Of a stretch of 64,000 bases of DNA, positions 1 through 57,368 are shown piece by piece (the first letter of the stretch is position 1; each line of letters begins with the position of its first letter). The position numbers and the translations under genes are program-made. The notes under the pieces are model-generated. The model worked only from the letters and a program-made list of their open reading frames with translations, was not told the DNA's origin and did no database searches. Origin of the DNA: Eledone cirrhosa. Taxonomy: Eukaryota. The stretch covers positions 420,050,001-420,114,000 of the forward strand of contig OZ024740.1 of assembly GCA_964016885.1 (NCBI GenBank). The letters run 5' to 3'.

Positions 1-3000
1 GTACATCTAGTCCTTATATCTGGATATGTAGATCTAGTCCTTATATCTGGATATGTAGAAGATCTAGTCCTTATATCTAGATATGTAGAAGATCTAGTCC
101 TTATATCTAGATATGTAGAAGATCTAGTCCTTATATCTAGATATGTAGATCTAGTCCTTATATCTAGATATGTAGATCTAGTCCTTATATCTGGATATGT
201 AGATCTAGTCCTTATATCTAGATATGTAGATCTAGTCCTTATATCTGGATATGTAGAAGGTCTAGTCCTTATATCTGGATATGTAGAACATCTAGTCCTT
301 ATATCTGGATATGTAGAACATCTAGTCCTTATATCTGGATATGTAGAAGATCTAGTCCTTATATCTAGATATGTAGATCTAGTCCTTATATCTAGATATG
401 TAGATCTAGTCCTTATATCTGGATATGTAGAAGATCTAGTCCTTATATCTAGATATGTAGATCTAGTCCTTATATCTAGATATGTAGATCTAGTCCTTAT
501 ATCTGGATATGTAGAAGATCTAGTCCTTATATCTGGATATGTAGAAGATCTAGTCCTTACATCTGGATATGTAGAAGATCTAGTCCTTATATCTAGATAT
601 GTAGATCTAGTCCTTATATCTAGATATGTAGATCTAGTCCTTATATCTGGATATGTAGAAGATCTAGTCCTTATATCTAGATATGTAGATCTAGTCCTTA
701 TATCTGGATATGTAGAAGATCTAGTCCTTATATCATGATATGTAGATCTAGTTCTTATATCTAGATATGTAGATCTAGTCCTTATATCTGGATATGTAGA
801 AGATCTAGTCCTTATATCTAGATATGTAGATCTAGTTCTTATATCTAGATATGCAGATCTAGTCCTTATATCTAGATATGTAGATCTAGTCCTTATATCT
901 AGATATGTAGATCTAGTCCTTATATCTAGATATGTAGATCTAGTCCTTATATCTAGATATGTAGATCTAGTTCTTATATCTAGATATGCAGATCTAGTCC
1001 TTATATCTAGATATGTAGATCTTGTCCTTATATCTAGATATGTAGATCTAGTCCTTATATCTGGATATGTAGAATATCTAGTCCTTATATCTGGATATGT
1101 AGAAGATCCAGTCCTTATATCTGGATATGTAGAAGATCTAGTCCTTATATCTGGATATGTAGAACATCTAGTCCTTATATCTGGATATGTAGAAGATCTA
1201 GTCCTTATATCTAGATATGTAGATCTAGTCCTTATATCTGGATATGTAGAGCATCTAGTCCTTATATCTGGATATGTAGAAGATCTAGTCCTTATATCTA
1301 GATATGTAGATCTAGTCCTTATATCTGGATATGTAGAAGATCTAGTCCTTATATCTAGATATTTAGATCTAGTCCTTATATCTTGATATGTAGAAGATCT
1401 AGTCCTTATATCTAGATATGTAGATCTAGTCCTTATATCTGGATATGTAGATCTAGTCCTTATATCTGGATATGTAGATCTAGTCCTTATACCTGGATAT
1501 GTAGATCTAGTCTTTATATCTAGATATGTAGATCTAGTCCTTATATCTGGATATGTAGAAGATCTAGTCCTTATATCTAGATATGTAGATCTAGTCCTTA
1601 TATCTGGATATGTAGAAGATCTAGTCCTTATATCTGGATATGTAGATCTAGTCCTTATATCTGGATATTTAGATCTAGTCCTTATATCTGGATATGTAGA
1701 AGATCTAGTCCTTATATCTGGATATGTAGAAGATCTAGTCCTTATATCTAGATATGTAGAAGATCTAGTCCTTATATCTAGATATGTAGATCTAGTCCTT
1801 ATATCTAGATATGTAGATCTAGTCCTTATATCTAGATATGTAGATCTAGTCCTTATATCTAGATATGTACATCTAGTCCTTATATCTGGATATGTAGATC
1901 TAGTCCTTATATCTGGATATGTAGAAGATCTAGTCCTTATATCTAGATATGTAGAAGATCTAGTCCTTATATCTAGATATGTAGAAGATCTAGTCCTTAT
2001 ATCTAGATATGTAGATCTAGTCCTTATATCTAGATATGTAGATCTAGTCCTTATATCTGGATATGTAGATCTAGTCCTTATATCTAGATATGTAGATCTA
2101 GTCCTTATATCTGGATATGTAGAAGGTCTAGTCCTTATATCTGGATATGTAGAACATCTAGTCCTTATATCTGGATATGTAGAACATCTAGTCCTTATAT
2201 CTGGATATGTAGAAGATCTAGTCCTTATATCTAGATATGTAGATCTAGTCCTTATATCTAGATATGTAGATCTAGTCCTTATATCTGGATATGTAGAAGA
2301 TCTAGTCCTTATATCTAGATATGTAGATCTAGTCCTTATATCTAGATATGTAGATCTAGTCCTTATATCTGGATATGTAGAAGATCTAGTCCTTATATCT
2401 GGATATGTAGAAGATCTAGTCCTTACATCTGGATATGTAGAAGATCTAGTCCTTATATCTAGATATGTAGATCTAGTCCTTATATCTAGATATGTAGATC
2501 TAGTCCTTATATCTGGATATGTAGAAGATCTAGTCCTTATATCTAGATATGTAGATCTAGTCCTTATATCTGGATATGTAGAAGATCTAGTCCTTATATC
2601 ATGATATGTAGATCTAGTTCTTATATCTAGATATGTAGATCTAGTCCTTATATCTGGATATGTAGAAGATCTAGTCCTTATATCTAGATATGTAGATCTA
2701 GTTCTTATATCTAGATATGCAGATCTAGTCCTTATATCTAGATATGTAGATCTAGTCCTTATATCTAGATATGTAGATCTAGTCCTTATATCTAGATATG
2801 TAGATCTAGTCCTTATATCTAGATATGTAGATCTAGTCCTTATATCTAGATATGTAGATCTAGTCCTTATATCTAGATATGTAGATCTAGTCCTTATATC
2901 TAGATATATAGATCTAGTCCTTATATCTAGATATGTAGACCTAGTCCTTATACCTGGATATGTAGAAGATCTAGTCCTTATATCATGATATGTAGATCTA

Positions 3001-6000
3001 GTTCTTATATCTAGATATGTAGATCTAGTCCTTATATCTGGATATGTAGAAGATCTAGTCCTTATATCTAGATATGTAGATCTAGTTCTTATATCTAGAT
3101 ATGCAGATCTAGTCCTTATATCTAGATATGTAGATCTAGTCCTTATATCTAGATATGTAGATCTAGTCCTTATATCTAGATATGTAGATCTAGTCCTTAT
3201 ATCTAGATATGTAGATCTAGTCCTTATATCTGGATATGTAGAAGATCTAGTCCTTATATCTGGATATGTAGAAGATCCAGTCCTTATATCTGGATATGTA
3301 GAAGATCTAGTCCTTATATCTGGATATGTAGAAGATCTAGTCCTTATATCTGGATATGTAGAAGATCTAGTCCTTATATCTAGATATGTAGATCTAGTCC
3401 TTATATCTAGATATGTAGATCTAGTCCTTATATCTAGATATGTAGATCTAGTCCTTATATCTGGATATGTAGAAGATCTAGTCCTTATATCTAGATATTT
3501 AGATCTAGTCCTTATATCTGGATATGTAGAAGATCTAGTCCTTATATCTAGATATGTAGATCTAGTCCTTATATCTGGATATGTAGATCTAGTCCTTATA
3601 TCTGGATATTTAGATCTAGTCCTTATATCTGGATATGTAGAAGATCTAGTCCTTATATCTGGATATGTAGAAGATCTAGTCCTTATATCTAGATATGTAG
3701 AAGATCTAGTCCTTATATCTGGATATGTAGATCTAGTCCTTATATCTGGATATGTAGATCTAGTCCTTATACCTGGATATGTAGATCTAGTCTTTATATC
3801 TAGATATGTAGATCTAGTCCTTATATCTAGATATGTAGAAGATCTAGTCCTTATATCTAGATATGTAGATCTAGTCCTTATATCTGGATATGTAGATCTA
3901 GTCCTTATATCTAGATATGTAGATCTAGTCCTTATATCTGGATATGTAGAAGATCTAGTCCTTATATCTGGATATGTAGAAGATCTAGTCCTTATATCTG
4001 GATATGTAGATCTACTCCTTATATCTAGATATGTAGATCTAGTCCTTATATCTAGATATGTAGATCTAGTCCTTATATCTGGATATGTAGATCTAGTCCT
4101 TATATCTAGATATGTAGATCTAGTCCTTATATCTGGATATGTAGAAGATCTAGTCCTTATATCTAGATATGTAGATCTAGTCCTTATATCTGGATATGTA
4201 GAAGATCTAGTCCTTATATCTGGATATGTAGAAGATCTAGTCCTTATATCTGGATATGTAGAACATCTAGTCCTTATATCTGGATATGTAGAACATCTAG
4301 TCCTTATATCTGGATATGTAGAAGATCTAGTCCTTATATCTAGATATGTAGATCTAGTCCTTATATCTAGATATGTAGATCTAGTCCTTATATCTAGATA
4401 TGTAGATCTAGTCCTTATATCTAGATATGTAGATCTAGTCCTTATATCTGGATATGTAGAAGATCTAGTCCTTATATCTAGATATGTAGATCTAGTCCTT
4501 ATATCTGGATATGTAGAAGATCTAGTCCTTATATCTGGATATGTAGAAGATCTAGTCCTTATATCTGGATATGTAGAACATCTAGTCCTTATATCTGGAT
4601 ATGTAGAACATCTAGTCCTTATATCTGGATATGTAGAAGATCTAGTCCTTATATCTAGATATGTAGATCTAGTCCTTATACCTGGATATGTAGAAGATCT
4701 AGTCCTTATATCTGGATATGTAGATCTAGTCCTTATATCTGGATATGTAGAAGATCTAGTCCTTATATCTAGATATGTAGAAGATCTAGTCCTTATATCT
4801 AGATATTTAGTTCTAGTCCTTATATCTGGATATGTAGATCTAGTCCTTATATCTGGATATGTAGAAGATCTAGTCCTTATATCTGGATATGTAGATCTAG
4901 TCCTTATATCTGGATATGTAGAAGATCTAGTCCTTATATCTGGATATGTAGATCTAGTCCTCATATCTGGATATGTAGATCTAGTCCTTATATCTAGATA
5001 TGTAGATATAGTCCTTATATCTGGATATGTAGAAGATCTAGTCCTTATATCTAGATATGTAGATCTAGTCCTTATATCTGGATATGTAGAAGATCTAGTC
5101 CTTATATCTGGATATGTAGATCTAGTCCTTATATCTGGATATGTAGATCTAGTCCTTATATCTAGATATGTAGATCTAGTCCTTATATCTGGATATGTAG
5201 ATCTAGTCCTTATATCTGGATATGTAGAAGATCTAGTCCTTATATCTGGATATGTAGATCTAGTCCTTATATCTGGATATGTAGAAGATCTCGTCCTTAT
5301 ATCTGGATATGTAGAAAATCTTGTCCTTATATCTGGATATGTAGATCTAGTCCTTATATCTAGATATGTAGATCTAGTCCTTATATCTAGATATGTAGAT
5401 CTAGTCCTTATATCTGGATATGTAGAAGATCTAGTCCTTATATCTGGATATGTAGAAGATCTAGTCCTTATATCTGGATATGTAGATCTAGTCCTTATAT
5501 CTAGATATGTAGATCTAGTCCTTATATCTGGATATGTAGAAGATCTAGTCCTTATATCTGGATATGTAGAAGATCTAGTCCTTATATCTGGATATGTAAA
5601 AGATCTAGTCCTTATATCTAGATATGTAGAAGATCTAGTCCTTATATCTAGATATGTAGATCTAGTCCTTATATCTAGATATGTACATCTAGTCCTTATA
5701 TCTAGATATGTAGAAGATCTAGTCCTTATATCTAGATATGTAGAAGATCTAGTCCTTATATCTAGATATGTAGAAGATCTAGTCCTTATATCTAGATATG
5801 TAGAAGATCTAGTCCTTATATCTAGATATGTAGATCTAGTCCTTATATCTAGATATGTAGATCTAGTCCTTATATCTAGATATGTAGAAGATCTAGTCCT
5901 TATATCTAGACATGTAGAAGATCTAGTCCTTATATCTAGATATGTAGAAGATCTAGTCTTTATATCTAGATATGTAGATCTAGTCCTTATATCTAGATAT

Positions 6001-6337
6001 GTAACAGATCTAGTCCTTATATCTAGATATGTAGATCTAGTCCTTATACCTGGATATGTAGATCTAGTCCTTATATCTGGATATGTAGATCTAGTCCTTA
6101 TACCTGGATATGTAGAAGATCTAGTCCTTATATCTGGATATGTAGATCCAGTCCTTATACCTGGATATGTAGAAGATCTAGTCCTTATACCTGGATATGT
6201 AGATCTAGTCCTTATATCTAGATATGTAGATCTAGTCCTTATACCTGGATATGTAGATCTAGTCCTTATATCTAGATATGTAGATCTAGTCCTTATACCT
6301 GAATATGTAGATCTAGTCCTTATACTTGGATATGTAG
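1..6337. repeat. Tandem satellite of mixed 27/30-bp units GATCTAGTCCTTATATCTRGATATGTA(GAA), >200 copies, continuing beyond the window start
   Basis: Directly visible periodicity; the last unit runs in frame into RTE reverse-transcriptase sequence. Confidence 0.98.
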
Positions 6338-10618: not shown

Positions 10619-10695
10619 CCCTCAAGCAAGTGTTTCGGCTCTTAATAAATAATAAAAATAATATTTGCATATTATTATAACTCATCTCATGGAAA

Positions 10696-13606
10696 AGAAT
10701 TCTTGTATTCTCCAGTTCTTCCTTGGGTAAAGAATTCTTCTATTCTCCAGTTCTTCCTTGGGTAAAGAATTCTTCTATTCTCCAGTTCTTCCTTGGGTAA
10801 AGAATTCTTCTATTCTCCAATTCTTCCTTGGGTAAAGAATTCTTCTATTCTCCAATTCTTCCTTGGGTAAGGAATTCTTCTATTCTCCAATTCTTCCTTG
10901 GGTAAGGAATTCTTCTATTCTCCAATTCTTCCTTGGGTAAAGAATTCTTCAATTCTCCAGTTGTTCCTTGGGTAAAGAATTCTTCTATTCTCCAGTTCTT
11001 CCTTGGGTAAAGAATTCTTCTATTCTCCAGTTCTTCCTTGGGTAAAGAATTCTTCTATTCTCCAATTCTTCCTTGGGTAAAGAATTCTTCTATTCTCCAA
11101 TTCTTCCTTGGGTAAAGAATTCTTCTATTCTCCAGTTCTTCCTTGGGTAAAGAATTCTTCTATTCTCCAATTCTTCCTTGGGTAAGGAATTCTTCTATTC
11201 TCCAATTCTTCCTTGGGTAAAGAATTCTTCAATTCTCCAGTTCTTCCTTGGGTAAAGAATTCTTGTTTTCTCCAGTTCTTCCTTGGGTAAAGAATTCTTC
11301 TATTCTCCAATTCTTCCTTGGGTAAAGAATTCTTCTATTCTCCAATTCTTCCTTGGGTAAAGAATTCTTCTATTCTCCAGTTCTTCCTTGGGTAAAGAAT
11401 TCTTCTATTCTTCAATTCTTCCTTGGGTAAAGAATTCTTCTATTCTCCAATTCTTCCTTGGGTAAAGAATTCTTCTATTCTCCAGTTCTTCCTTGGGTAA
11501 AGAATTCTTCTATTCTCCAGTTCTTCCTTGGGTAAGGAATTCTTCTATTCTCCAATTCTTCCTTGGGTAAAGAATTCTTCTATTCTCCAGTTCTTCCTTG
11601 GGTAAAGAATTCTGCTATTCTCCAACTCTTCCTTGGGTAAAGAATTCTTCTATTCTCCAATTCTTCCTTGGGTAAGGAATTCTTCTATTCTCCAATTCTT
11701 CCTTGGGTAAAGAATTCTTCTATTCTCCAATTCTTCCTTGGGTAAGGAATTCTTCTATTCTCCAATTCTTCCTTGGGTAAAGAATTCTTCTATTCTCCAA
11801 TTCTTCCTTGGGTAAAGAATTCTTCTATTCTCCAGTTCTTCCTTGGGTAAAGAATTCTTCTATTCTCCAGTTCTTCCTTGGGTAAAGAATTCTTCTATTC
11901 TCCAGTTCTTCCTTGGGTAAAGAATTCTTCTATTCTCCAATTCTTCCTTGGGTAAAGAATTCTTCAATTCTCCAGTTCTTCCTTGGGTAAGGAATTCTTC
12001 TATTCTCCAATTCTTCCTTGGGTAAAGAATTCTTCAATTCTCCAGTTCTTCCTTGGGTAAAGAATTCTTGTATTCTCCAGTTCTTCCTTGGGTAAAGAAT
12101 TCTTCAATTCTCCAGTTCTTCCTTGGGTAAAGAATTCTTGTATTCTCCAGTTCTTCCTTGGGTAAAGAATTCTTCTATTCTCCAATTCTTCCTTGGGTAA
12201 AGAATTCTTCTATTCTCCAGTTCTTCCTTGGGTAAAGAATTCTTCTATTCTCCAGTTCTTCCTTGGGTAAAGAATTCTTCTATTCTCCAGTTCTTCCTTG
12301 GGTAAAGAATTCTTGTATTCTCCAGTTCTTCCTTGGGTAAAGAATTCTTCTATTCTCCAGTTCTTCCTTGGGTAAAGAATTCTTCTATTCTCCAATTCTT
12401 CCTTGGGTAAAGAATTCTTCTATTCTCCAATTCTTCCTTGGGTAAAGAATTCTTCTATTCTCCAGTTCTTCCTTGGGTAAAGAATTCTTCTATTCTCCAG
12501 TTCTTCCTTGGGTAAAGAATTCTTCTATTCTCCAGTTCTTCCTTGGGTAAATAATTCTTCTATTCTCCAATTCTTCCTTGGGTAAAGAATTCTTCTATTC
12601 TCCAATTCTTCCTTGGGTAAGGAATTCTTCTATTCTCCAATTCTTCCTTGGGTAAAGAATTCTTCTATTCTTCAATTCTTCCTTGGGTAAGGAATCCTTC
12701 TATTCTCCAATTCTTCCTTGGGTAAAGAATTTTTCTATTCTCCAATTCTTCCTTGGGTAAGGAATTCTTCTATTCTCCAATTCTTCCTTGGGTAAGGAAT
12801 TCTTCTATTCTCCAATTCTTCCTTGGGTAAAGAATTCTTCTATTCTCCAATTCTTCCTTGGGTAAAGAATTCTTCTATTCTCCAATTCTTCCTTGGGTAA
12901 AGAATTCTTCAATTCTCCAATTCTTCCTTGGGTAAGGAATTCTTTTATTCTCCAATTCTTCCTTGGGTAAAGAATTCTTCTATTCTCCAGTTCTTCCTTG
13001 GGTAAAGAATTCTTCTATTCTCCAATTCTTCCTTGGGTAAAGAATTCTTCTATTCTCCAGTTCTTCCTTGGGTAAAGAATTCTTCTATTCTCCAGTTCTT
13101 CCTTGGGTAAAGAATTCTTCTATTCTCCAATTCTTCCTTGGGTAAAGAATTCTTCTATTCTCCAATTCTTCCTTGGGTAAGGAATTCTTCTATTCTCCAA
13201 TTCTTCCTTGGGTAAAGAATTCTTCTATTCTCCAATTCTTCCTTGGGTAAGGAATTCTTCTATTCTTCAATTCTTCCTTGGGTAAAGAATTCTTCTATTC
13301 TCCAATTCTTCCTTGGGTAAGGAATTCTTCTATTCTCCAATTCTTCCTTGGGTAAGGAATTCTTCTATTCTCCAATTCTTCCTTGGGTAAGGAATTCTTT
13401 TATTCTCCAATTCTTCCTTGGGTAAAGAATTCTTCAATTCTCCAGTTCTTCCTTGGGTAAGGAATTCTTCTATTCTCCAATTCTTCCTTGGGTAAAGAAT
13501 TCTTCAATTCTCCAGTTCTTCCTTGGGTAAAGAATTCTTCTATTCTCCAATTCTTCCTTGGGTAAAGAATTCTTCTATTCTCCAGTTCTTCCTTGGGTAA
13601 GGAATC
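10696..13606. repeat. 35-bp satellite AAGAATTCTTCTATTCTCCARTTCTTCCTTGGGTA, about 83 copies
   Basis: Strict 35-bp period with an EcoRI site in nearly every unit. Confidence 0.98.
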
Positions 13607-17177: not shown

Positions 17178-17572
17178 TCATCATCATCATCACCGTTTTA
17201 CGTCCGTTCTTCCATGCTAGCATGGGTTAGATGGGTTGTCCTGTTGCGGGCAGTGTCCAGTCGGCTGACCTTGTCTTGCTCATATGGGAACTGATTCTGG
17301 CTTGATTTCTACAGCTGGATGCCTTTCCTAACACCAACCTCATTTACAGTGTGGGCTGGGTGCTTTTTTGCCGTGGCACCTCCACGACCACTTTGCAGTG
17401 GAATGATAGGGACCCCAGTCCTATCATCTCATTTCTACAGCTCTGTAAACTGAAGCAATGTGAAATAAAGTGTCTTGCTCAATGAAACAACACATCACCC
17501 GGTCTGAGAATCGAACTCACAACCTTTTGATTGCAAGCCCAATGCTCTAACCACTAAGCCATGTGCCTTCAC
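17178..17572 (-). mobile_element. Chimeric SINE: tRNA/core head fused to an RTE 3' tail
   Basis: Head matches the SINE at 7549-7803 up to GGGGTCCCTATCATT, then switches to the RTE 3' UTR seen at 35110-35374; GTACA flanks both sides. Confidence 0.75.
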
Positions 17573-18069: not shown

Positions 18070-18125
<56 letters not shown>

Positions 18126-18192
18126 AAGGTTTAGCAAATAATGAAAAAGTTTCAAAATAAATTTTAAAAAATTGACTTTACCTACTATAGTT

Positions 18193-18276
18193 ACCTTTAC
18201 TGATCGGTTTCGAATCCCAAAAATAAAACGGAGACCATACGGCCTTCGTTGCAAAGAAAGATTCTCGTCAGAAGGT
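18193..18276 (-). ncRNA. Type I hammerhead ribozyme, copy 1 (one stem III mismatch)
   Basis: Reverse complement reads ACCTT-CTGACGA-GAATC...GATTC-GAAA-CCGATCAG-TA-AAGGT. Confidence 0.75.
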
Positions 18277-18674
18277 TCTTTTCATTCAAAGAATATAAAA
18301 TTCCTGAATTTAAATCACAGACTAGCGCTATCAAAACTGTTCCCGGGATGAGAGTGGATGATGTAGAAACAGGTTTATCAAGGGCCGAAGCAAAGATAGA
18401 GGCAAAAGGAGGTAGGTCAAACCAGCCACGGCTATCGCTAGCAGCAGTCAGAACGACCAAATTTGTTCTCAACATTAGTGGAGGTAGTAGTAATAGGATA
18501 TGTGTTCCATCACGCACAAGGCGCTAGGTACGCATGTATTGTCCAACCAAATGCCAATGTGGTTCAATGGCGGGTTAATAAATTAACGAGCCAGAACAAA
18601 TATAAAAAAGGTTTAGCAAATAATGAAAAAGTTTCAAAATAAATTTTAAAAAATTGACTTTACCTACTATAGTT

Positions 18675-18758
18675 ACCTTTACCGATCGGTTTCGAATCCC
18701 AAAAATAAAACGGAGACCATACGGCCTTCGTTGCAAAGAAAGATTCTCGTCAGAAGGT
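18675..18758 (-). ncRNA. Type I hammerhead ribozyme, copy 2
   Basis: Exact reverse complement of 19154-19237; 482 bp from copy 1. Confidence 0.85.
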
Positions 18759-19153
18759 TCTTTTCATTCAAAGAATATAAAATTCCTGAATTTAAATCAC
18801 AGACTAGCGCTATCAAAACTGTTCCCGGGATGAGAGTGGCTCGTTAATTTATTAACCCGCCATTGAACCACACTGGCATTTAGTTGGACAATACATGCGT
18901 ACCTAGCACCTTGTGCGTGAAGGAACACATATCCTATTACTACTACCTCCACTAATGTTGAGAACAAATTTGGTCGTTCTGACTGCTGCTAGCGATAGCC
19001 GTGGCTGGTTTGACCTACCTCCTTTTGCCTCTATCTTTGCTTCGGCCCTTGATAAACCTGTTTCTACATCATCCACTCTCATCCCGGGAACAGTTTTGAT
19101 AGCGCTAGTCTGTGATTTAAATTCAGGAATTTTATATTCTTTGAATGAAAAGA

Positions 19154-19237
19154 ACCTTCTGACGAGAATCTTTCTTTGCAACGAAGGCCGTATGGTCTCC
19201 GTTTTATTTTTGGGATTCGAAACCGATCGGTAAAGGT
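19154..19237 (+). ncRNA. Type I hammerhead ribozyme, copy 3 (predicted cleavage after 19232)
   Basis: Stem I ACCTT/AAGGT; core CTGACGA 19159-19165; stem II GAATCTT/GGGATTC with a long apical hairpin; GAAA 19219-19222; palindromic stem III CCGATCGG; GUA cleavage triplet. Confidence 0.85.
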
Positions 19238-19422
19238 AACTATAGTAGGTAAAGTCAATTTTTTAAAATTTATTTTGAAACTTTTTCATTATTTGCTAAA
19301 CCTTGTTTATATTTGTTCTGGCTCGTTAATTTATTAACCCGCCATTGAACCACACTGGCATTTGGTTGGACAATACATGCGTACCTAGCGCCTTGTGCGT
19401 GAAGGAACACATATCCTATTAC

Positions 19423-19453
<31 letters not shown>

Positions 19454-20428
19454 TATATCGTTCTCAATTTATTGTGCAAAACTTCTGAAATGTTTAATGT
19501 AAATAATGTCAGGCATAAAAAGCAGTTTAAAACAGAAAACAAACAAAAAGTTCTTTTAAATGTAATCAGTCACCTGGCAGGTGATAAGTTCCTGATTCCA
19601 ATCTTGCCAGTAAGCCTGTAGCTGTTTGTTGTTTCCAACTGATGTTTACAGTATCAAATTTCATTTAAAGGTAAAATTTGACATTAAAATTTAATCAATT
19701 TAAGATGTTCCTCTCAGTGAATCACCTGACTTATTCTATAGATTTTGTTCTATTATATTCCTAAATTTTTGTTGTGTCCCATGGACAAAATGGCGAAAGC
19801 ACTGCTGTGGAGAACAAACAGCCAGCATTGCTCACTGTCTAAGCCACTCCACCTCATAGAGCTCCTTCCTCAGTCACGATATATCCCTCCTAATTTCTCA
19901 GAGGAAAATGACAGTTTGGAGACTGACAACACCAGCAGTCTTGACCACAACCAGTAAGAAAAGGAAGTGGTCAGTCAAGTCCCAGTATTTGGATATCTGA
20001 CTGTTTCTATGGCAATTCTTTCACCATTTTCTCCACGGGGTGCAGCTGAGATATCCTGCCTAGACTGGGGTGTAGAGTTTGTTGCTGCCCTCCTTCCCAT
20101 TCTTCTTACTTTTATTATTTTATTTAATAGATTGGCGGAATCAGTAGAGCATCAGACAATATGCTTTGCACCATAGAGTTATGGCCCTTTACGTTCTGAG
20201 TTCAAATCCTGCCAAGGTTAGCTTTAGATAGATAAACTAAAGTACCGGTAATGCACTGGGGTCAATTTAATCGACTTTCTCCTCCTCCAAAATTGCTGGC
20301 CTTGTGCCTAAATCAGAAACCATTATTTAATTTTTCTATTTCAAAAAAATATTTTTTGTTGCAAACTTTATACAATTTAATTGAAATTTGTTAAATAGAG
20401 ATTTTCACTTGTATTTTTGTTGTAACAG

Positions 20429-44131: not shown

Positions 44132-47010
44132 ATTTAGGACAAATGAGGCCCTGTCTAGCCTCATAACAACCCATCTAATTTAGGACAAATGAGGCCCTAT
44201 CTAGCCTCATAACAACCCATCTAATTTAGGACAAATGAGGCCCTATCTAGCCTCATAACAACCCATCTAATTTAGGACAAATGATGCCCTATCTAGCCTC
44301 ATAACAACCCATCTAATTTAGGACAAATGATGCCCTATCTAGCCTCATAACAACCCATCTAATTTAGGACAAATGAGGCCCTGTCTAGCCTCATAACAAC
44401 CCATCTAATTTAGGACAAATGAGGCCCTATCTAGCCTCATAACAACCCATCTAATTTAGGACAAATGAGGCCCTATCTAGCCTCATAACAACCCATCTAA
44501 TTTAGGACAAATGATGCCTTATCTAGCCTCATGACAACCCATCTAATTTAGGACAAATGAGGCCCTATCTAGCCTCATAACAACCCATCTAATTTAGGAC
44601 AAATGAGGCCCTATCTAGCCTCATAACAACCCATCTAATTTAGGACAAATGATGCCCTATCTAGCCTCATAACAACCCATCTAATTTAGGACAAATGATG
44701 CCCTATCTAGCCTCATAACAACCCATCTAATTTAGGACAAATGAGGCCCTGTCTAGCCTCATAACAACCCATCTAATTTAGGACAAATGAGGCCCTATCT
44801 AGCCTCATAACAACCCATCTAATTTAGGACAAATGAGGCCCTATCTAGCCTCATAACAACCCATCTAATTTAGGACAAATGATGCCCTATCTAGCCTCAT
44901 AACAACCCATCTAATTTAGGACAAATGAGGCCCTATCTAGCCTCATAACAACCCATCTAATTTAGGACAAATGAGGCCCTATCTAGCCTCATAACAACCC
45001 ATCTAATTTAGGACAAATGAGGCCCTGTCTAGCCTCATAACAACCCATCTAATTTAGGACAAATGATGCCCTATCTAGCCTCATAACCCATCTAATTTAG
45101 GACAAATGAGGCTCTGTCTAGCCTCATAACACCCCATCTAATTTAGGACAAATGAGGCCCTGTCTAGCCTCATAACAACCCATCTAATTTAGGACAAATG
45201 AGGCCCTATCTAGCCTCATAACAACCCATCTAATTTAGGACAAATGATGCCCTATCTAGCCTCATAACAACCCATCTAATTTAGGACAAATGAGGCTCTG
45301 TCTAGCCTCATAACAACCCATCTAATTTAGGACAAATGAGGCCCTATCTAGCCTCATAACAACCCATCTAATTTAGGACAAATGAGGCCCTATCTAGCCT
45401 CATAACAACCCATCTAATTTAGGACAAATGAGGCCCTATCTAGCCTCATAACAACCCATCTAATTTAGGACAAATGAGGCCCTGTCTAGCCTCATAACAA
45501 CCCATCTAATTTAGGACAAATTATGCCCTATCTAGCCTCATAACAACCCATCTAATTTAGGACAAATGAGGCTCTGTCTAGCCTCATAACAACCCATCTA
45601 ATTTAGGACAAATGAGGCCCTGTCTAGCCTCATAACAACCCATCTAATTTAGGACAAATGAGGCCCTATCTAGCCTCATAACAACCCATCTAATTTAGGA
45701 CAAATGATGCCCTATCTAGCCTCATAACAACCCATCTAATTTAGGACAAATGATGCCCTATCTAGCCTCATAACAACCCATCTAATTTAGGACAAATGAG
45801 GCCCTGTCTAGCCTCATAACAACCCATCTAATTTAGGACAAATGAGGCCCTATGTAGCCTCATAACAACCCATCTAATTTAGGACAAATGAGGCCCTATC
45901 TAGCCTCATGACAACCCATCTAATTTAGGACAAATGAGGCCCTATCTAGCCTCATAACAACCCATCTAATTTAGGACAAATGAGGCCCTATCTAGCCTCA
46001 TAACAACCCATCTAATTTAGGACAAATGATGCCCTGTCTAGCCTCATGACAACCGATCTAATTTAGGACAAATGAGGCCCTGTCTAGTCTTATGACATAA
46101 CAACCCATCTAATTTAGGACAAATGAGGCTCTGTCTAGCCTCATAACAACCCATCTGATTTAGGACAAATGAGGCCCTGTCTAGCCTCATAACAACCCAT
46201 CTAATTTAGGACAAATGAGGCCCTATCTAGCCTCATAACAACCCATCTAATTTAGGACAAATGATGCCCTGTCTAGCCTCATGACAACCCATCTAATTTA
46301 GGACAAATGAGGCCCTATCTAGCCTCATAACAACCCATCTAATTTAGGACAAATGATGCCCTGTCTAGCCTCATGACAACCCATCTAATTTAGGACAAAT
46401 GAGGCCCTGTCTAGTCTTATGACATAACAACCCATCTGATTTAGGACAAATGAGGCCCTGTCTAGTCTTATGACATCACAACCCATCTAATTTAGGACAA
46501 ATGAGGCTCTGTCTAGCCTCATAACAACCCATCTAATTTAGGACAAATGATGCCCTATCTAGCCTCATAACAACCCATCTAATTTAGGACAAATGAGGCC
46601 CTATCTAGCCTCATAACAACCCATCTAATTTAGGACAAATGATGCCCTGTCTAGCCTCATGACAACCCATCTAATTTAGGACAAATGAGGCCCTATCTAG
46701 CCTCATAACAACCCATCTAATTTAGGACAAATGATGCCCTGTCTAGCCTCATGACAACCCATCTAATTTAGGACAAATGAGGCCCTGTCTAGTCTTATGA
46801 CATAACAACCCATCTGATTTAGGACAAATGAGGCCCTGTCTAGTCTTATGACATCACAACCCATCTAATTTAGGACAAATGAGGCCCTGTCTAGCCTCAT
46901 AACAACCCATCTGATTTAGGACAAATGAGGCCCTGTCTAGCCTCATAACAACCCATCTAATTTAGGACAAATGAGGCCCTGTCTAGCCTCATAACAACCC
47001 ATCTGATTTA
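44132..47010. repeat. 46-bp satellite ATTTAGGACAAATGAGGCCCTATCTAGCCTCATAACAACCCATCTA, about 62 copies
   Basis: Direct reading; the array ends in an RTE-type tail. Confidence 0.98.
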
Positions 47011-52296: not shown

Positions 52297-53136
52297 ATCA
52301 TCATCATCATCATCATCACCGTTTTACGTCCGTTCTTCCACGCTAGCATGGGTTAGACGGGTTGTCCTGTTGTGGGCAGTGTCTGGTCGGCTGACCATGC
52401 CTTGCTCATACAGGAACTGATCCGGCTTGATTTCTACAGCTGGATGCCCTTCCTAACACCAACCTCATTTACAGTGAGTGCTGGGTGCTTTTTCGTGGCG
52501 CCTACACGTCCACTTTACAGTGTGGGCTGGGTGCTTTTTTGCCGTGGCACCTCCACGACCACCTTGCGGTGGGGGGGGGGGGGGCATATTGTTTATATGC
52601 TTCAGCATGTACCCATGGGAGGTCGGGTACCCTGTATTACTGCGTGACGCCAGAAGTCACGGTCGTGTGTCATTGACTTTGAGAGGTGTAGTTGGGTAAG
52701 GTCGGCTTTTATCACCTCATCCCAAGTCATCTTGGGTCTCCCCACTCCGCGGTTTCCATCAACTTCTAGTGCTCTGCACCTTTTTATGCAGCTGTCATCC
52801 TTCATACGCATCACATGTCCATACCAGCGTAACCGCCTCTCCTGCACGCAGCATTTGATTCCTCTTATGCTCAGTCTCTCTCTCAATTCCTTTATGCTTT
52901 GTCGTTCACGTATATTACTGTTACACATCCATCGGAGCATGCAGGCTTCGTTTCTCTCTAATCTACGTAAGTCTTCCACCTTCAGCGCCCAGGTCTCACT
53001 ACCATGCAACATCGCTGTTCGGATACACGCATCATACAGTCTGCCTTTCATTCTGAGGGAGAAGCCTTTTGCAGCTAGCAGTGGTAGTAGTTCCCTAAAC
53101 TTCTTCCATCCCGTTCTTACCCTAGTTATTGTACTT
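52297..53136 (-). mobile_element. 5'-truncated RTE LINE with open ORF2 C-terminus, inserted in the 11-bp array
   Basis: RVRTGWKKFRELLPLL...MLHGSETW...RRLRWYGHVMR...GRPKMTW; highly similar to 34580-35374. Confidence 0.93.
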
Positions 53137-56100
53137 ATACAACATATACACAGCATATATACAACATATATACAGCATATATACAGCATATATACAACAT
53201 ATATACAACATATATACAACATATATACAGCATATATACAGCATATATACAACATATATACAGCATATATACAGCATATATACAACATATATACAGCATA
53301 TATACAGCATATATACAACATATATACAACATATATACAACATATATACAGCATATATACAGCATATATACAGCATATATACAACATATATACAGCATAT
53401 ACACAGCATATATACAACATATACACAGCATATACACAGCATATATACAACATATACACAGCATATATACAGCATATACACAGCATATATACAACATATA
53501 TACAGCATATACACAGCATATATACAACATATATACAACATATATACAGCATATATACAACATATATACAGCATATATACAGCATATATACAACATATAT
53601 ACAACATATATACAACATATACACAACATATACACAGCATATATACAACATATACACAGCATATATACAACATATATACAACATATATACAACATATACA
53701 CAACATATATACAACATATACACAGCATATATACAACATATATACAACATATATACAACATATATACAGCATATATACAGCATATATACAACATATATAC
53801 AGCATATATACAGCATATATACAACATATACACAGCATATATACAACATATACACAGCATATATACAGCATATATACAGCATATATACAACATATATACA
53901 ACATATATACAACATATATACAGCATATATACAGCATATATACAGCATATATACAACATATATACAGCATATATACAACATATATACAGCATATATACAA
54001 CATATATACAGCATATATACAGCATATATACAACATATATACAACATATATACAACATATATACAGCATATACACAGCATATATACAACATATATACAAC
54101 ATATATACAACATATATACAACATATATACAACATATATACAGCATATACACAGCATATATACAACATATACACAGCATATACACAGCATATATACAACA
54201 TATATACAACATATATACAGCATATACACAGCATATATACAGCATATACACAGCATATATACAACATATATACAGCATATACACAGCATATATACAACAT
54301 ATATACAACATATATACAGCATATATACAACATATATACAGCATATATACAGCATATATACAACATATACACAGCATATATACAACATATATACAGCATA
54401 TACACAGCATATATACAACATATATACAGCATATATACAGCATATATACAACATATATACAACATATATACAACATATACACAGCATATATACAGCATAT
54501 ACACAGCATATATACAACATATACACAGCATATATACAACATATACACAGCATATATACAACATATACACAGCATATATACAACATATACACAGCATATA
54601 TACAACATATATACAACATATATACAACATATACACAACATATATACAACATATACACAGCATATATACAACATATATACAACATATATACAACATATAC
54701 ACAGCATATATACAGCATATACACAGCATATATACAACATATATACAACATATATACAGCATATATACAACATATATACAACATATATACAACATATACA
54801 CAGCATATATACAACATATATACAACATATATACAACATATACACAGCATATATACAACATATATACAGCATATATACAACATATATACAACATATATAC
54901 AGCATATATACAGCATATATACAGCATATATACAACATATATACAACATATACACAGCATATATACAACATATATACAGCATATATACAACATATATACA
55001 GCATATATACAGCATATATACAACATATATACAACATATACACAGCATATATACAACATATATACAGCATATATACAACATATATACAACATATATACAG
55101 CATATATACAACATATATACAACATATATACAACATATACACAGCATATATACAACATATATACAGCATATATACAACATATATACAACATATATACAGC
55201 ATATATACAGCATATATACAGCATATATACAGCATATAGACAGCATATACACAGCATATATACAACATATATACAGCATATATACAACATATATACAACA
55301 TATATACAACATATATACAGCATATATACAACATATATACAACATATATACAACATATACACAGCATATATACAACATATATACAGCATATATACAACAT
55401 ATATACAACATATATACAACATATATACAACATATATACAGCATATATACAACATATATACAACATATATACAACATATATACAACATATACACAGCATA
55501 TATACAACATATATACAACATATATACAACATATACACAGCATATATACAACATATATACAGCATATATACAACATATATACAACATATATACAGCATAT
55601 ATACAGCATATATACAACATATACACAGCATATATACAACATATATACAGCATATACACAGCATATATACAACATATATACAGCATATATACAGCATATA
55701 TACAACATATATACAACATATATACAACATATACACAGCATATATACAGCATATACACAGCATATATACAACATATACACAGCATATATACAACATATAC
55801 ACAGCATATATACAACATATACACAGCATATATACAACATATACACAGCATATATACAACATATATACAACATATATACAACATATACACAACATATATA
55901 CAACATATACACAGCATATATACAACATATATACAACATATATACAACATATACACAGCATATATACAGCATATACACAGCATATATACAACATATATAC
56001 AACATATATACAGCATATATACAACATATATACAACATATATACAACATATACACAGCATATATACAACATATATACAACATATATACAACATATACACA

Positions 56101-57017
56101 GCATATATACAACATATATACAGCATATATACAACATATATACAACATATATACAGCATATATACAGCATATATACAGCATATATACAACATATATACAA
56201 CATATACACAGCATATATACAACATATATACAGCATATATACAACATATATACAGCATATATACAGCATATATACAACATATATACAACATATACACAGC
56301 ATATATACAACATATATACAGCATATATACAACATATATACAACATATATACAGCATATATACAACATATATACAACATATATACAACATATACACAGCA
56401 TATATACAACATATATACAGCATATATACAACATATATACAACATATATACAGCATATATACAGCATATATACAGCATATATACAGCATATAGACAGCAT
56501 ATACACAGCATATATACAACATATATACAGCATATATACAACATATATACAACATATATACAACATATATACAGCATATATACAACATATATACAACATA
56601 TATACAACATATACACAGCATATATACAACATATATACAGCATATATACAACATATATACAACATATATACAGCATATATACAGCATATATACAGCATAT
56701 ATACAACATATATACAACATTTATACAGCATATAGACATCATATATACAGCATATATACAGCATATATACAACATATATACAACATATATACAACATATA
56801 TACAACATATATACAGCATATATACAGCATATATACAGCATATATACAACATATATACAACATATATACAACATATAGACAGCATATATACAGCATATAT
56901 ACAGCATATATACAGCATATATACAGCATATATACAGCATATATACAGCATATATACAGCATATATACAGCATATATACAACATATATACAACATATATA
57001 CAGCATATATACAACAT
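53137..57017. repeat. 11-bp tandem array CATATAYACAR, about 350 copies (plus 52214-52297)
   Basis: Direct reading; explains the >800-aa ORFs. Confidence 0.98.
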
Positions 57018-57368
57018 AAAGGATCGATCGACTTTTGTCAAATCGGTCACAACTCCAGGTAGAAGGAGCAACGTGAAATAAAGTGTCTTGCTCAAGGACA
57101 TAACGCATCGCCTGGTCCAAGAATCGAACTCACAACCTCAAGATTGTGAATCCAATTCTCTAACCACTCAGCCACACGCCTTCACAGTGATATACAGCAT
57201 ATATACAATGGAATTCCGTTATAACAAAATTCACGGAGAATGAAAAAAAATTTGTTGTAACAAAAAATTCTTTATAACGAGATCGACCTAACACACGTGT
57301 GGTCGGGGATTGAAAAAATGTTATACTGAAAAAAATGTTATAATGGTATTCGTTATAACAAAATGTTA

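Follow-up and report, generated by a model that had tools for sequence, protein, structure and literature searches.

We report a 482-nt hammerhead repeat family in the cephalopod Eledone cirrhosa, found from one insertion in a 64,000-nt stretch of contig OZ024740.1 (hereafter the window, meaning the whole stretch of DNA analysed). The insertion, young, non-coding and one of many dispersed copies, is likely a non-LTR retrozyme that was copied in trans by a Penelope-like element (PLE), probably from a unit-length RNA circle.

Self-comparison of the window confirmed the 482-bp period of the tandem unit given in the preliminary description (18118-18357 recurs at 18600-18839, 99%; 18837-18942 recurs at 19319-19424, 98%). 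The single head-to-tail array described there proved to be two arms, one on each strand and joined head-to-head, so that the halves are mutually inverted copies (476 nt, 99%). Numbered on a reference unit at 18837-19318, the minus arm comprises unit 237-482 followed by 1-476, and the plus arm unit 1-482 followed by 1-106. The insertion is flanked on both sides by (TA)n, which the 3′ end of each arm meets at one of two sites, S1 and S2. The features are as follows.

18089..18122, no strand: left (TA)17 target microsatellite.
18118..18839, minus strand: minus arm, 722 nt, 1.5 units; 5′ end at unit 237, 3′ end at S1 (unit 476).
18193..18276, minus strand: hammerhead copy 1, mismatched in stem III at 18201 and predicted to cut after 18198.
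18198..18679, minus strand: predicted 482-nt monomer between both minus-strand cut sites (computed length, putative release).
18675..18758, minus strand: intact hammerhead copy 2, predicted to cut after 18680.
18837..18839: arm junction, 5′-to-5′ (head-to-head), 3-nt microhomology.
18837..19424, plus strand: plus arm, 588 nt, 1.2 units; 3′ end at S2 (unit 103-106).
19154..19237, plus strand: hammerhead copy 3, intact type I; predicted cut after 19232.
19272..19354, plus strand: block on both sides of S1 (19312), the best conserved stretch of the unit, with a small hairpin.
19313..19424, plus strand: "tail" from S1 to S2, about 110 nt.
19423..19458, no strand: right (TA)18 target microsatellite.

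Eight positions in the arms depart from the reference unit, in keeping with the few differences between monomers and the young insertion described earlier; by the same count the insertion is young yet older than two long arrays elsewhere in the genome, L147 and L225. The minus arm holds two consecutive hammerhead units, the minimum expected of an animal non-LTR retrozyme, one of them mismatched. An exact 482-nt monomer had been predicted between the minus-strand cuts; the length is exact, and the mutated copy 1 would be needed for its release. With copy 1 mutated and a two-arm transcript predicted to bury two ribozymes, the locus would be a poor source of circles, contrary to the role first proposed for it, and the window copy is probably a passive product rather than a source. 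A plus-strand transcript through both arms is predicted to fold as one long hairpin over copies 2 and 3, and a minus-strand transcript of both arms should have the same geometry. Elsewhere, the window holds a tRNA-like match at 17504-17561 (minus strand; Rfam RF00005, 31.7 bits), probably a SINE head, with related 46-48-nt repeats spread across the window, and long minisatellites at 1-6337, 10694-13605, 44132-47010 and 53136-57018 (periods 27, 35, 46 and 11/22 nt).

A motif descriptor returned three hammerheads in the whole window and none in 60 shuffled windows, all three at the positions and strands first assigned to them. They are of type I, with core CUGANGA, GAAA, an NUH triplet, three helices and stem I open. 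Copy 3 has a 53-nt stem II region, a palindromic stem III and a GUA triplet, and its predicted cut agrees with the position proposed before. The stem III palindrome, claimed for the motif in general, is intact in copies 2 and 3; in copy 1 the change at 18201 breaks both a pair and the palindrome. The long apical hairpin is likewise present, with an A-C mismatch between its two helices. Constrained to the active structure, the motif folds at −19.8 kcal/mol, 2.1 above the minimum of −21.9 kcal/mol. Rfam models, suggested as a check in the preliminary description, matched no hammerhead in the window, whether the gathering cutoff or a limit of E 10 was applied, presumably because of the long stem II region. 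The same region, with no loop-loop contact identified, means that the predicted ribozyme may cleave slowly; eight of nine retrozyme dimers from Xenopus failed to cleave in vitro (10.64898/2026.07.22.740005).

The 3.0-Gb genome was searched for the 482-nt hammerhead repeat of the window (family A). Of 2,316 candidates, the 40 that were scored gave 124 matches, spread over many contigs, and full-unit matches were 96-100% identical to the window unit. An exact 25-mer gave 737 genome matches and the hammerhead pattern 2,677 (reversed controls, 0). The family A unit is non-coding, with a GC content of 39% (below 50%) and no LTR seen. Sister family B has a 486-nt unit, about 77% identical to that of A, with the same layout, and family D (457-519 nt) shares its layout with A and 65% identity over the ribozyme-to-tail part (E 4.5e-11). 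Genomic copies of the subfamilies fall into a graded series. Family sequence is also present in contigs of four sequencing runs of unknown type, which says nothing on expression. Family D (L092:6600-7450; L181-L210) is non-coding, has a different but fully paired stem I and follows the same two-end rule described below; its tail pattern, which excludes most A and B copies, has 587 matches. A further (TA)n-flanked head-to-head hammerhead repeat (L101:1054-2506; relatives in L212 and L214) has a period near 690 nt, a long stem II and GUA.

Families A and B agree at 30 of 31 positions of the core and of stems I and III, and at 123 of 177 in the spacer (P 7e-4, for regions delimited after the alignment had been viewed). 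Stem II shows one two-sided change between A and B. In family D, three of the five stem I pairs are altered on both sides and pairing is 100%; only stem I was counted for D, because its alignment is one column off register in stems II and III. Motifs were intact in 48 of 52 family A copies and 33 of 45 family B copies, counts that are biased upward since they come from the best-scoring copies; loss of the core in other copies, which had been named as evidence against a retrozyme, was not what the survey found. By these comparisons the hammerhead is under constraint, and its stems co-vary across sister families. The block that brackets S1 is identical between A and B at 79 of 83 positions, against the same 123 of 177 in the spacer, and its small hairpin motif near S1 recurs in family D; from this conservation, the block (19272..19354) is likely the binding site of the mobilising protein.

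The main anatomy, on which the preliminary description was silent, is a pair of fixed PLE-type 3′ ends. Ends were read at the 59 loci behind the first 100 of the 737 25-mer matches (contig C1, chromosome order). Repeated loci of one place (L004, L008, L009, L014 and others) and arms below 85% identity were dropped before counting, and L003, L026 and L156 were dropped as segmental or near duplicates in the counts so marked. The 3′ ends of 86 arms lay at S1 (unit 471-480) in 48 cases, at S2 (unit 96-109) in 30 and elsewhere in 8; two sites about 110 nt apart thus take 78 of the 86. TA-rich DNA follows 80 of these ends (target duplications are unreadable in (TA)n), and the 5′ ends are scattered, with a mean arm length of 475 nt. 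At locus L141 (2082-6091), one arm is seemingly split by a 2.2-kb insertion and was tallied as two arms; its 3′ units differ from its 5′ units at several sites, a possible template switch.

The two sites are used in an almost strict pairing. Among 23 head-to-head pairs, 18 joined an S1 arm to an S2 arm, one was S1+S1 and four had an end outside both sites (P 4e-5 for the 19 pairs that could be assigned; 17 of 18 with one near-duplicate removed). S1+S2 pairs also made up 8 of 10 in a best-score sample, 6 of 8 in family B and 9 of 13 in family D (the last read by eye in a sample biased to tails), and none of these three samples held a same-site pair. Arms overlapped by 1-4 nt of microhomology at 12 of 25 paired insertions. 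Stalling of S2 arms just beyond S1 was considered and rejected (4 of 25 stops, P 0.57). Four 5′ ends fell at the ribozyme cut, against 1.35 expected (P about 0.05; not the top bin, and two of the four came from one odd locus).

PLE insertions are described as biased to (TA)n, with inverted partner arms and a tail at one end only (PMC8557442), and a PLE reverse transcriptase (RT) in vitro uses two internal RNA start sites that bound the tail, extending both target strands (PMC11167929). The present insertions have what a non-autonomous PLE would have: fixed 3′ ends, a tail on one end, 5′ truncation, an inverted arm and a (TA)n target. Mobilisation in trans had been proposed from the start, and a dispersed, young, non-coding family with a conserved, co-varying hammerhead supports it; that a PLE was the agent is very probable.

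What the PLE copied is a separate matter. A linear monomer cut at the ribozyme limits arms to 80 nt from S1 and 189 nt from S2, and 68 of 86 arms cross the cut site (23 at least twice), so templates were uncut or re-joined. At L147 (1528-7347), a ten-unit arm shows 0 differences among its units, and 36 differences from the window unit are common to both arms; at L225 (2745-7185), a nine-unit arm has two private changes. In each, an inverted partner arm ends at the fixed site that the long arm does not use. L226 belongs to the L225 subfamily and has fixed variants of its own. Units lie a median 0.3% apart, whether compared inside an arm (104 pairs) or across opposite arms (54 pairs), and 3.5% apart when they come from different insertions (11,648 pairs). 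Across 47 insertions with double cover, 26 rare alleles were fixed in all copies of 10 insertions; 8 of them span opposite arms, and independent mutation would give about 0.1. This count left out L149 (two separate insertions) and 53 homopolymer or end columns, and 10 of the 26 alleles come from one locus in a thinly sampled subfamily. Rare-allele sharing and unit identity point to passage through a single unit; a circle fits, and so would template jumping or gene conversion. Given PLE mobilisation, we consider a circular template the probable one.

The main competitor, possible but rather unlikely, is a non-autonomous PLE inserted at S1/S2 from linear RNA, either an uncut multimer or a monomer on which the enzyme jumped; circles would then be by-products and the hammerhead would serve for end trimming only. 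In vitro, uncut RNA is the dominant PLE substrate and hammerhead cleavage is dispensable for insertion (PMC11167929), and PLEs without canonical hammerheads still produce tandem and inverted insertions, the partial tandems of hammerhead-less Naiads among them (PMC8557442). Some arms start at the cut beyond another ribozyme (L011, L022, L134, L159), the slight excess of 5′ ends at that position agrees with some of the templates having been linear and cut, and a junction with a repeated 16-nt stem III-cut-stem I piece (L015:1371-1403) suggests template slippage. An old linear multimer source should, however, pass on differences between its units, and such inherited differences are nearly absent: within the 47 insertions, 160 differences are private and 6 are of a common allele, and a single insertion pair has two common-allele sites in common. 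Arms mostly contain at most two cut sites, though nine- and ten-unit arms occur, and the ribozyme is conserved despite most copies spanning its cut; both points tell against linear RNA.

Unit identity would be silent on the RNA template if arrays had been expanded or homogenised as DNA after insertion, by unequal exchange or conversion. Local amplification is the course favoured in 10.64898/2026.07.22.740005; here, the 4.9-kb arm greatly exceeds the mean of 475 nt, and units at L027 show a mosaic of common differences. Set against this, the long arrays at L147 and L225 stop exactly at S1 or S2, the opposite arm at the other site carries the same variants, and dispersal and fixed ends are left unexplained. 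We judge this account improbable.

It is equally improbable that the unit serves only as pLTR to a coding PLE, with the short copies being 5′-truncated insertions, although the order hammerhead, S1, tail, S2 agrees with that in the pLTR of a coding family (F1, below) and the arms examined come from the first 100 of the 737 25-mer matches. Among the copies examined, arms extend 5′ into a further unit copy and never into an ORF. A PLE protein matched none of 122 5′ flanks of sampled arms, and six PLE proteins searched against 130 family A and B loci matched only in separate neighbouring insertions. No joined PLE ORF occurred at 30 loci carrying a variant of the tail motif or at 20 more (14 with divergent hammerheads); an ORF 3.5 kb upstream at L215 was rejected as a separate insertion. 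Nor is the unit itself coding, as the preliminary description had held for RT and GIY-YIG. Its two long open frames (108 and 119 codons) matched 0 Pfam families and are broken in family B, and a coding remnant was rejected on these grounds; tblastn of a PLE protein against the window gave no match; the ORF with RT and GIY-YIG of an autonomous PLE is thus absent from the unit. The possibility first raised against the retrozyme, a coding Penelope element duplicated locally with this unit as its terminal repeat, is not borne out in these copies.

The genome survey proposed at the outset yielded copy number and stem covariation and, in the loci searched, no convincing autonomous PLE partner. Coding PLEs are plentiful in the genome (10,596 GIY-YIG candidates; RT and GIY-YIG domains seen). 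Against 50 GIY-YIG loci, units A and B gave two weak matches only (E 0.013), of which one fell within low-complexity DNA and the other within a different non-coding hammerhead repeat, and a profile of the S1-tail region found family D copies only. Against 30 loci of a further PLE family, the best match of that profile had E 0.079. No convincing terminal-repeat sequence in common with a coding PLE emerged from these 80 PLE loci, drawn from 10,596 and 59,973 candidates. Coding family F1 (RVT_1 and GIY-YIG) has a ribozyme-like motif, S1, tail and S2 in that order, in (TA)n, and its inverted insertions place one arm at each fixed site; its likeness in sequence is the short ribozyme motif only (similar stem I, GUA triplet). 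PLE clade labels (Neptune-like, Hydra-like) were assigned by eye.

Two coding families were seen in passing. A full-length PLE at L091 (2763-8210) consists of a repeat, a 938-codon open frame and a repeat; in its hammerhead-like motif, core positions 3 and 8 are U and A in place of C and G, a pair that can be tolerated in hammerheads. A very abundant young PLE-like family (L215:5061-6884; L231-L260; 59,973 candidates, many with 781-codon frames) has (TA)n insertions, an optional tail and a long-stem hammerhead-like motif; a 607-codon frame of this family had no significant Pfam match.

"Viroid-like" was the word first used for the circle. RNA-level replication with only occasional capture by the genome would agree with its size and ribozyme type, and mussel circles are not exact matches to genomic copies (PMC7229834), but such a replicon is hardly credible here, where the ribozyme occurs in a single polarity, the predicted 482-nt circle has a branched fold in place of a compact rod (61% paired, z −1.7), the subfamilies form a graded genomic series and nothing indicates RNA-to-RNA replication.

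For the preferred reading, PLE copying of a ribozyme-made circle, we outline a tentative course of events. A source array bearing at least two ribozymes would be transcribed, the hammerheads would excise a 482-nt monomer and a host ligase would close it. A PLE protein would bind near the S1 hairpin, and both (TA)n target strands would be nicked. Synthesis of cDNA would be primed at S1 on one strand and at S2 on the other; each cDNA would circle the template for a variable length, and microhomology would join the two. Such rolling-circle target-primed reverse transcription, with a PLE dimer on the circle yielding head-to-head arms of up to ten identical units, is a specific scheme to which we give somewhat less than even weight. 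If it is true, PLE tail, tandem and inversion would be the outcome of a single reaction with a circular template, and the clan of long-stem hammerhead retrozymes missed by Rfam (457-519, possibly 690 nt) would be its minimal proving substrate.

The family bears on two open questions, the enzyme that moves animal retrozymes and the function of the hammerhead in PLEs, which PMC8557442 calls unclear. A PLE origin of animal non-LTR retrozymes has been proposed before (PMC7229834; 10.64898/2026.07.22.740005), in the latter from co-occurrence and sequence relatedness, and metazoan retrozyme repeats are said to lack a conserved motif that would indicate a partner (review PMC7761336). To this is added evidence at the level of insertions: the PLE end signature, the conserved start-site block and the almost strict rule of one site per arm. 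At 482 nt, and with both start sites mapped, the RNA would suit the established in vitro assay of PLE activity as a small substrate, and circle versus linear template is directly decidable there; the L147 and L225 arrays are the best templates for work at the bench.

Among known systems, hammerhead viroids and plant LTR retrozymes share with the family a small hammerhead RNA that could circularise; the ribozyme of the window family is of type I and not III and of one polarity, and the family has no LTR and no rod-like fold. Non-autonomous Chlamys elements such as MRC1 are also non-coding PLE derivatives, multicopy and head-to-tail (PMC8557442). They resemble autonomous families at the 3′ end and most lack canonical hammerheads, whereas the window family has a conserved ribozyme and no partner found in the loci searched. 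Endonuclease-bearing (EN+) PLEs (Poseidon PAc of Anolis, PMC11167929; (TA)n-targeting Neptune/Naiad-type elements, PMC8557442) share with it two fixed 3′ ends, a tail on one end, an inverted 5′-truncated arm, partial tandems, an AT-rich or (TA)n target and a hammerhead upstream of the ends. They differ in that the window family is without an ORF, its tail is about 110 nt rather than 30-40 bp, and its hammerhead is full-stemmed where that of PLEs is minimal.

The non-LTR retrozymes of coral, mussel and axolotl, which accumulate as circles (PMC7229834), are likewise non-coding tandems below 50% GC with one type I hammerhead per unit and no LTR seen; as in animal non-LTR retrozymes generally, motifs number thousands per genome and PLEs coexist. 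The 482-nt unit exceeds the 170-400 nt given in PMC7229834 and lies inside the 51-972 bp range of retrozymes in 10.64898/2026.07.22.740005; the 53-nt stem II region missed by Rfam and the predominance of one or two units also set the window family apart. The accessible portions of those two papers do not mention (TA)n targets, arms joined head-to-head or a double set of fixed 3′ ends, as seen here. For animal retrozymes, circles and cleavage have been demonstrated; in the window family both are predicted. The literature searched gave no account of such a cephalopod family or of a count of S1+S2 pairing; the search lay outside Repbase, Dfam and most subscription papers, so the family may already be catalogued. 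Within that scope, the 482-nt family is new, the class of animal non-LTR retrozymes and non-autonomous PLEs to which it belongs is already described, and the genomic evidence that it offers for PLE mobilisation of a retrozyme is unusually direct.
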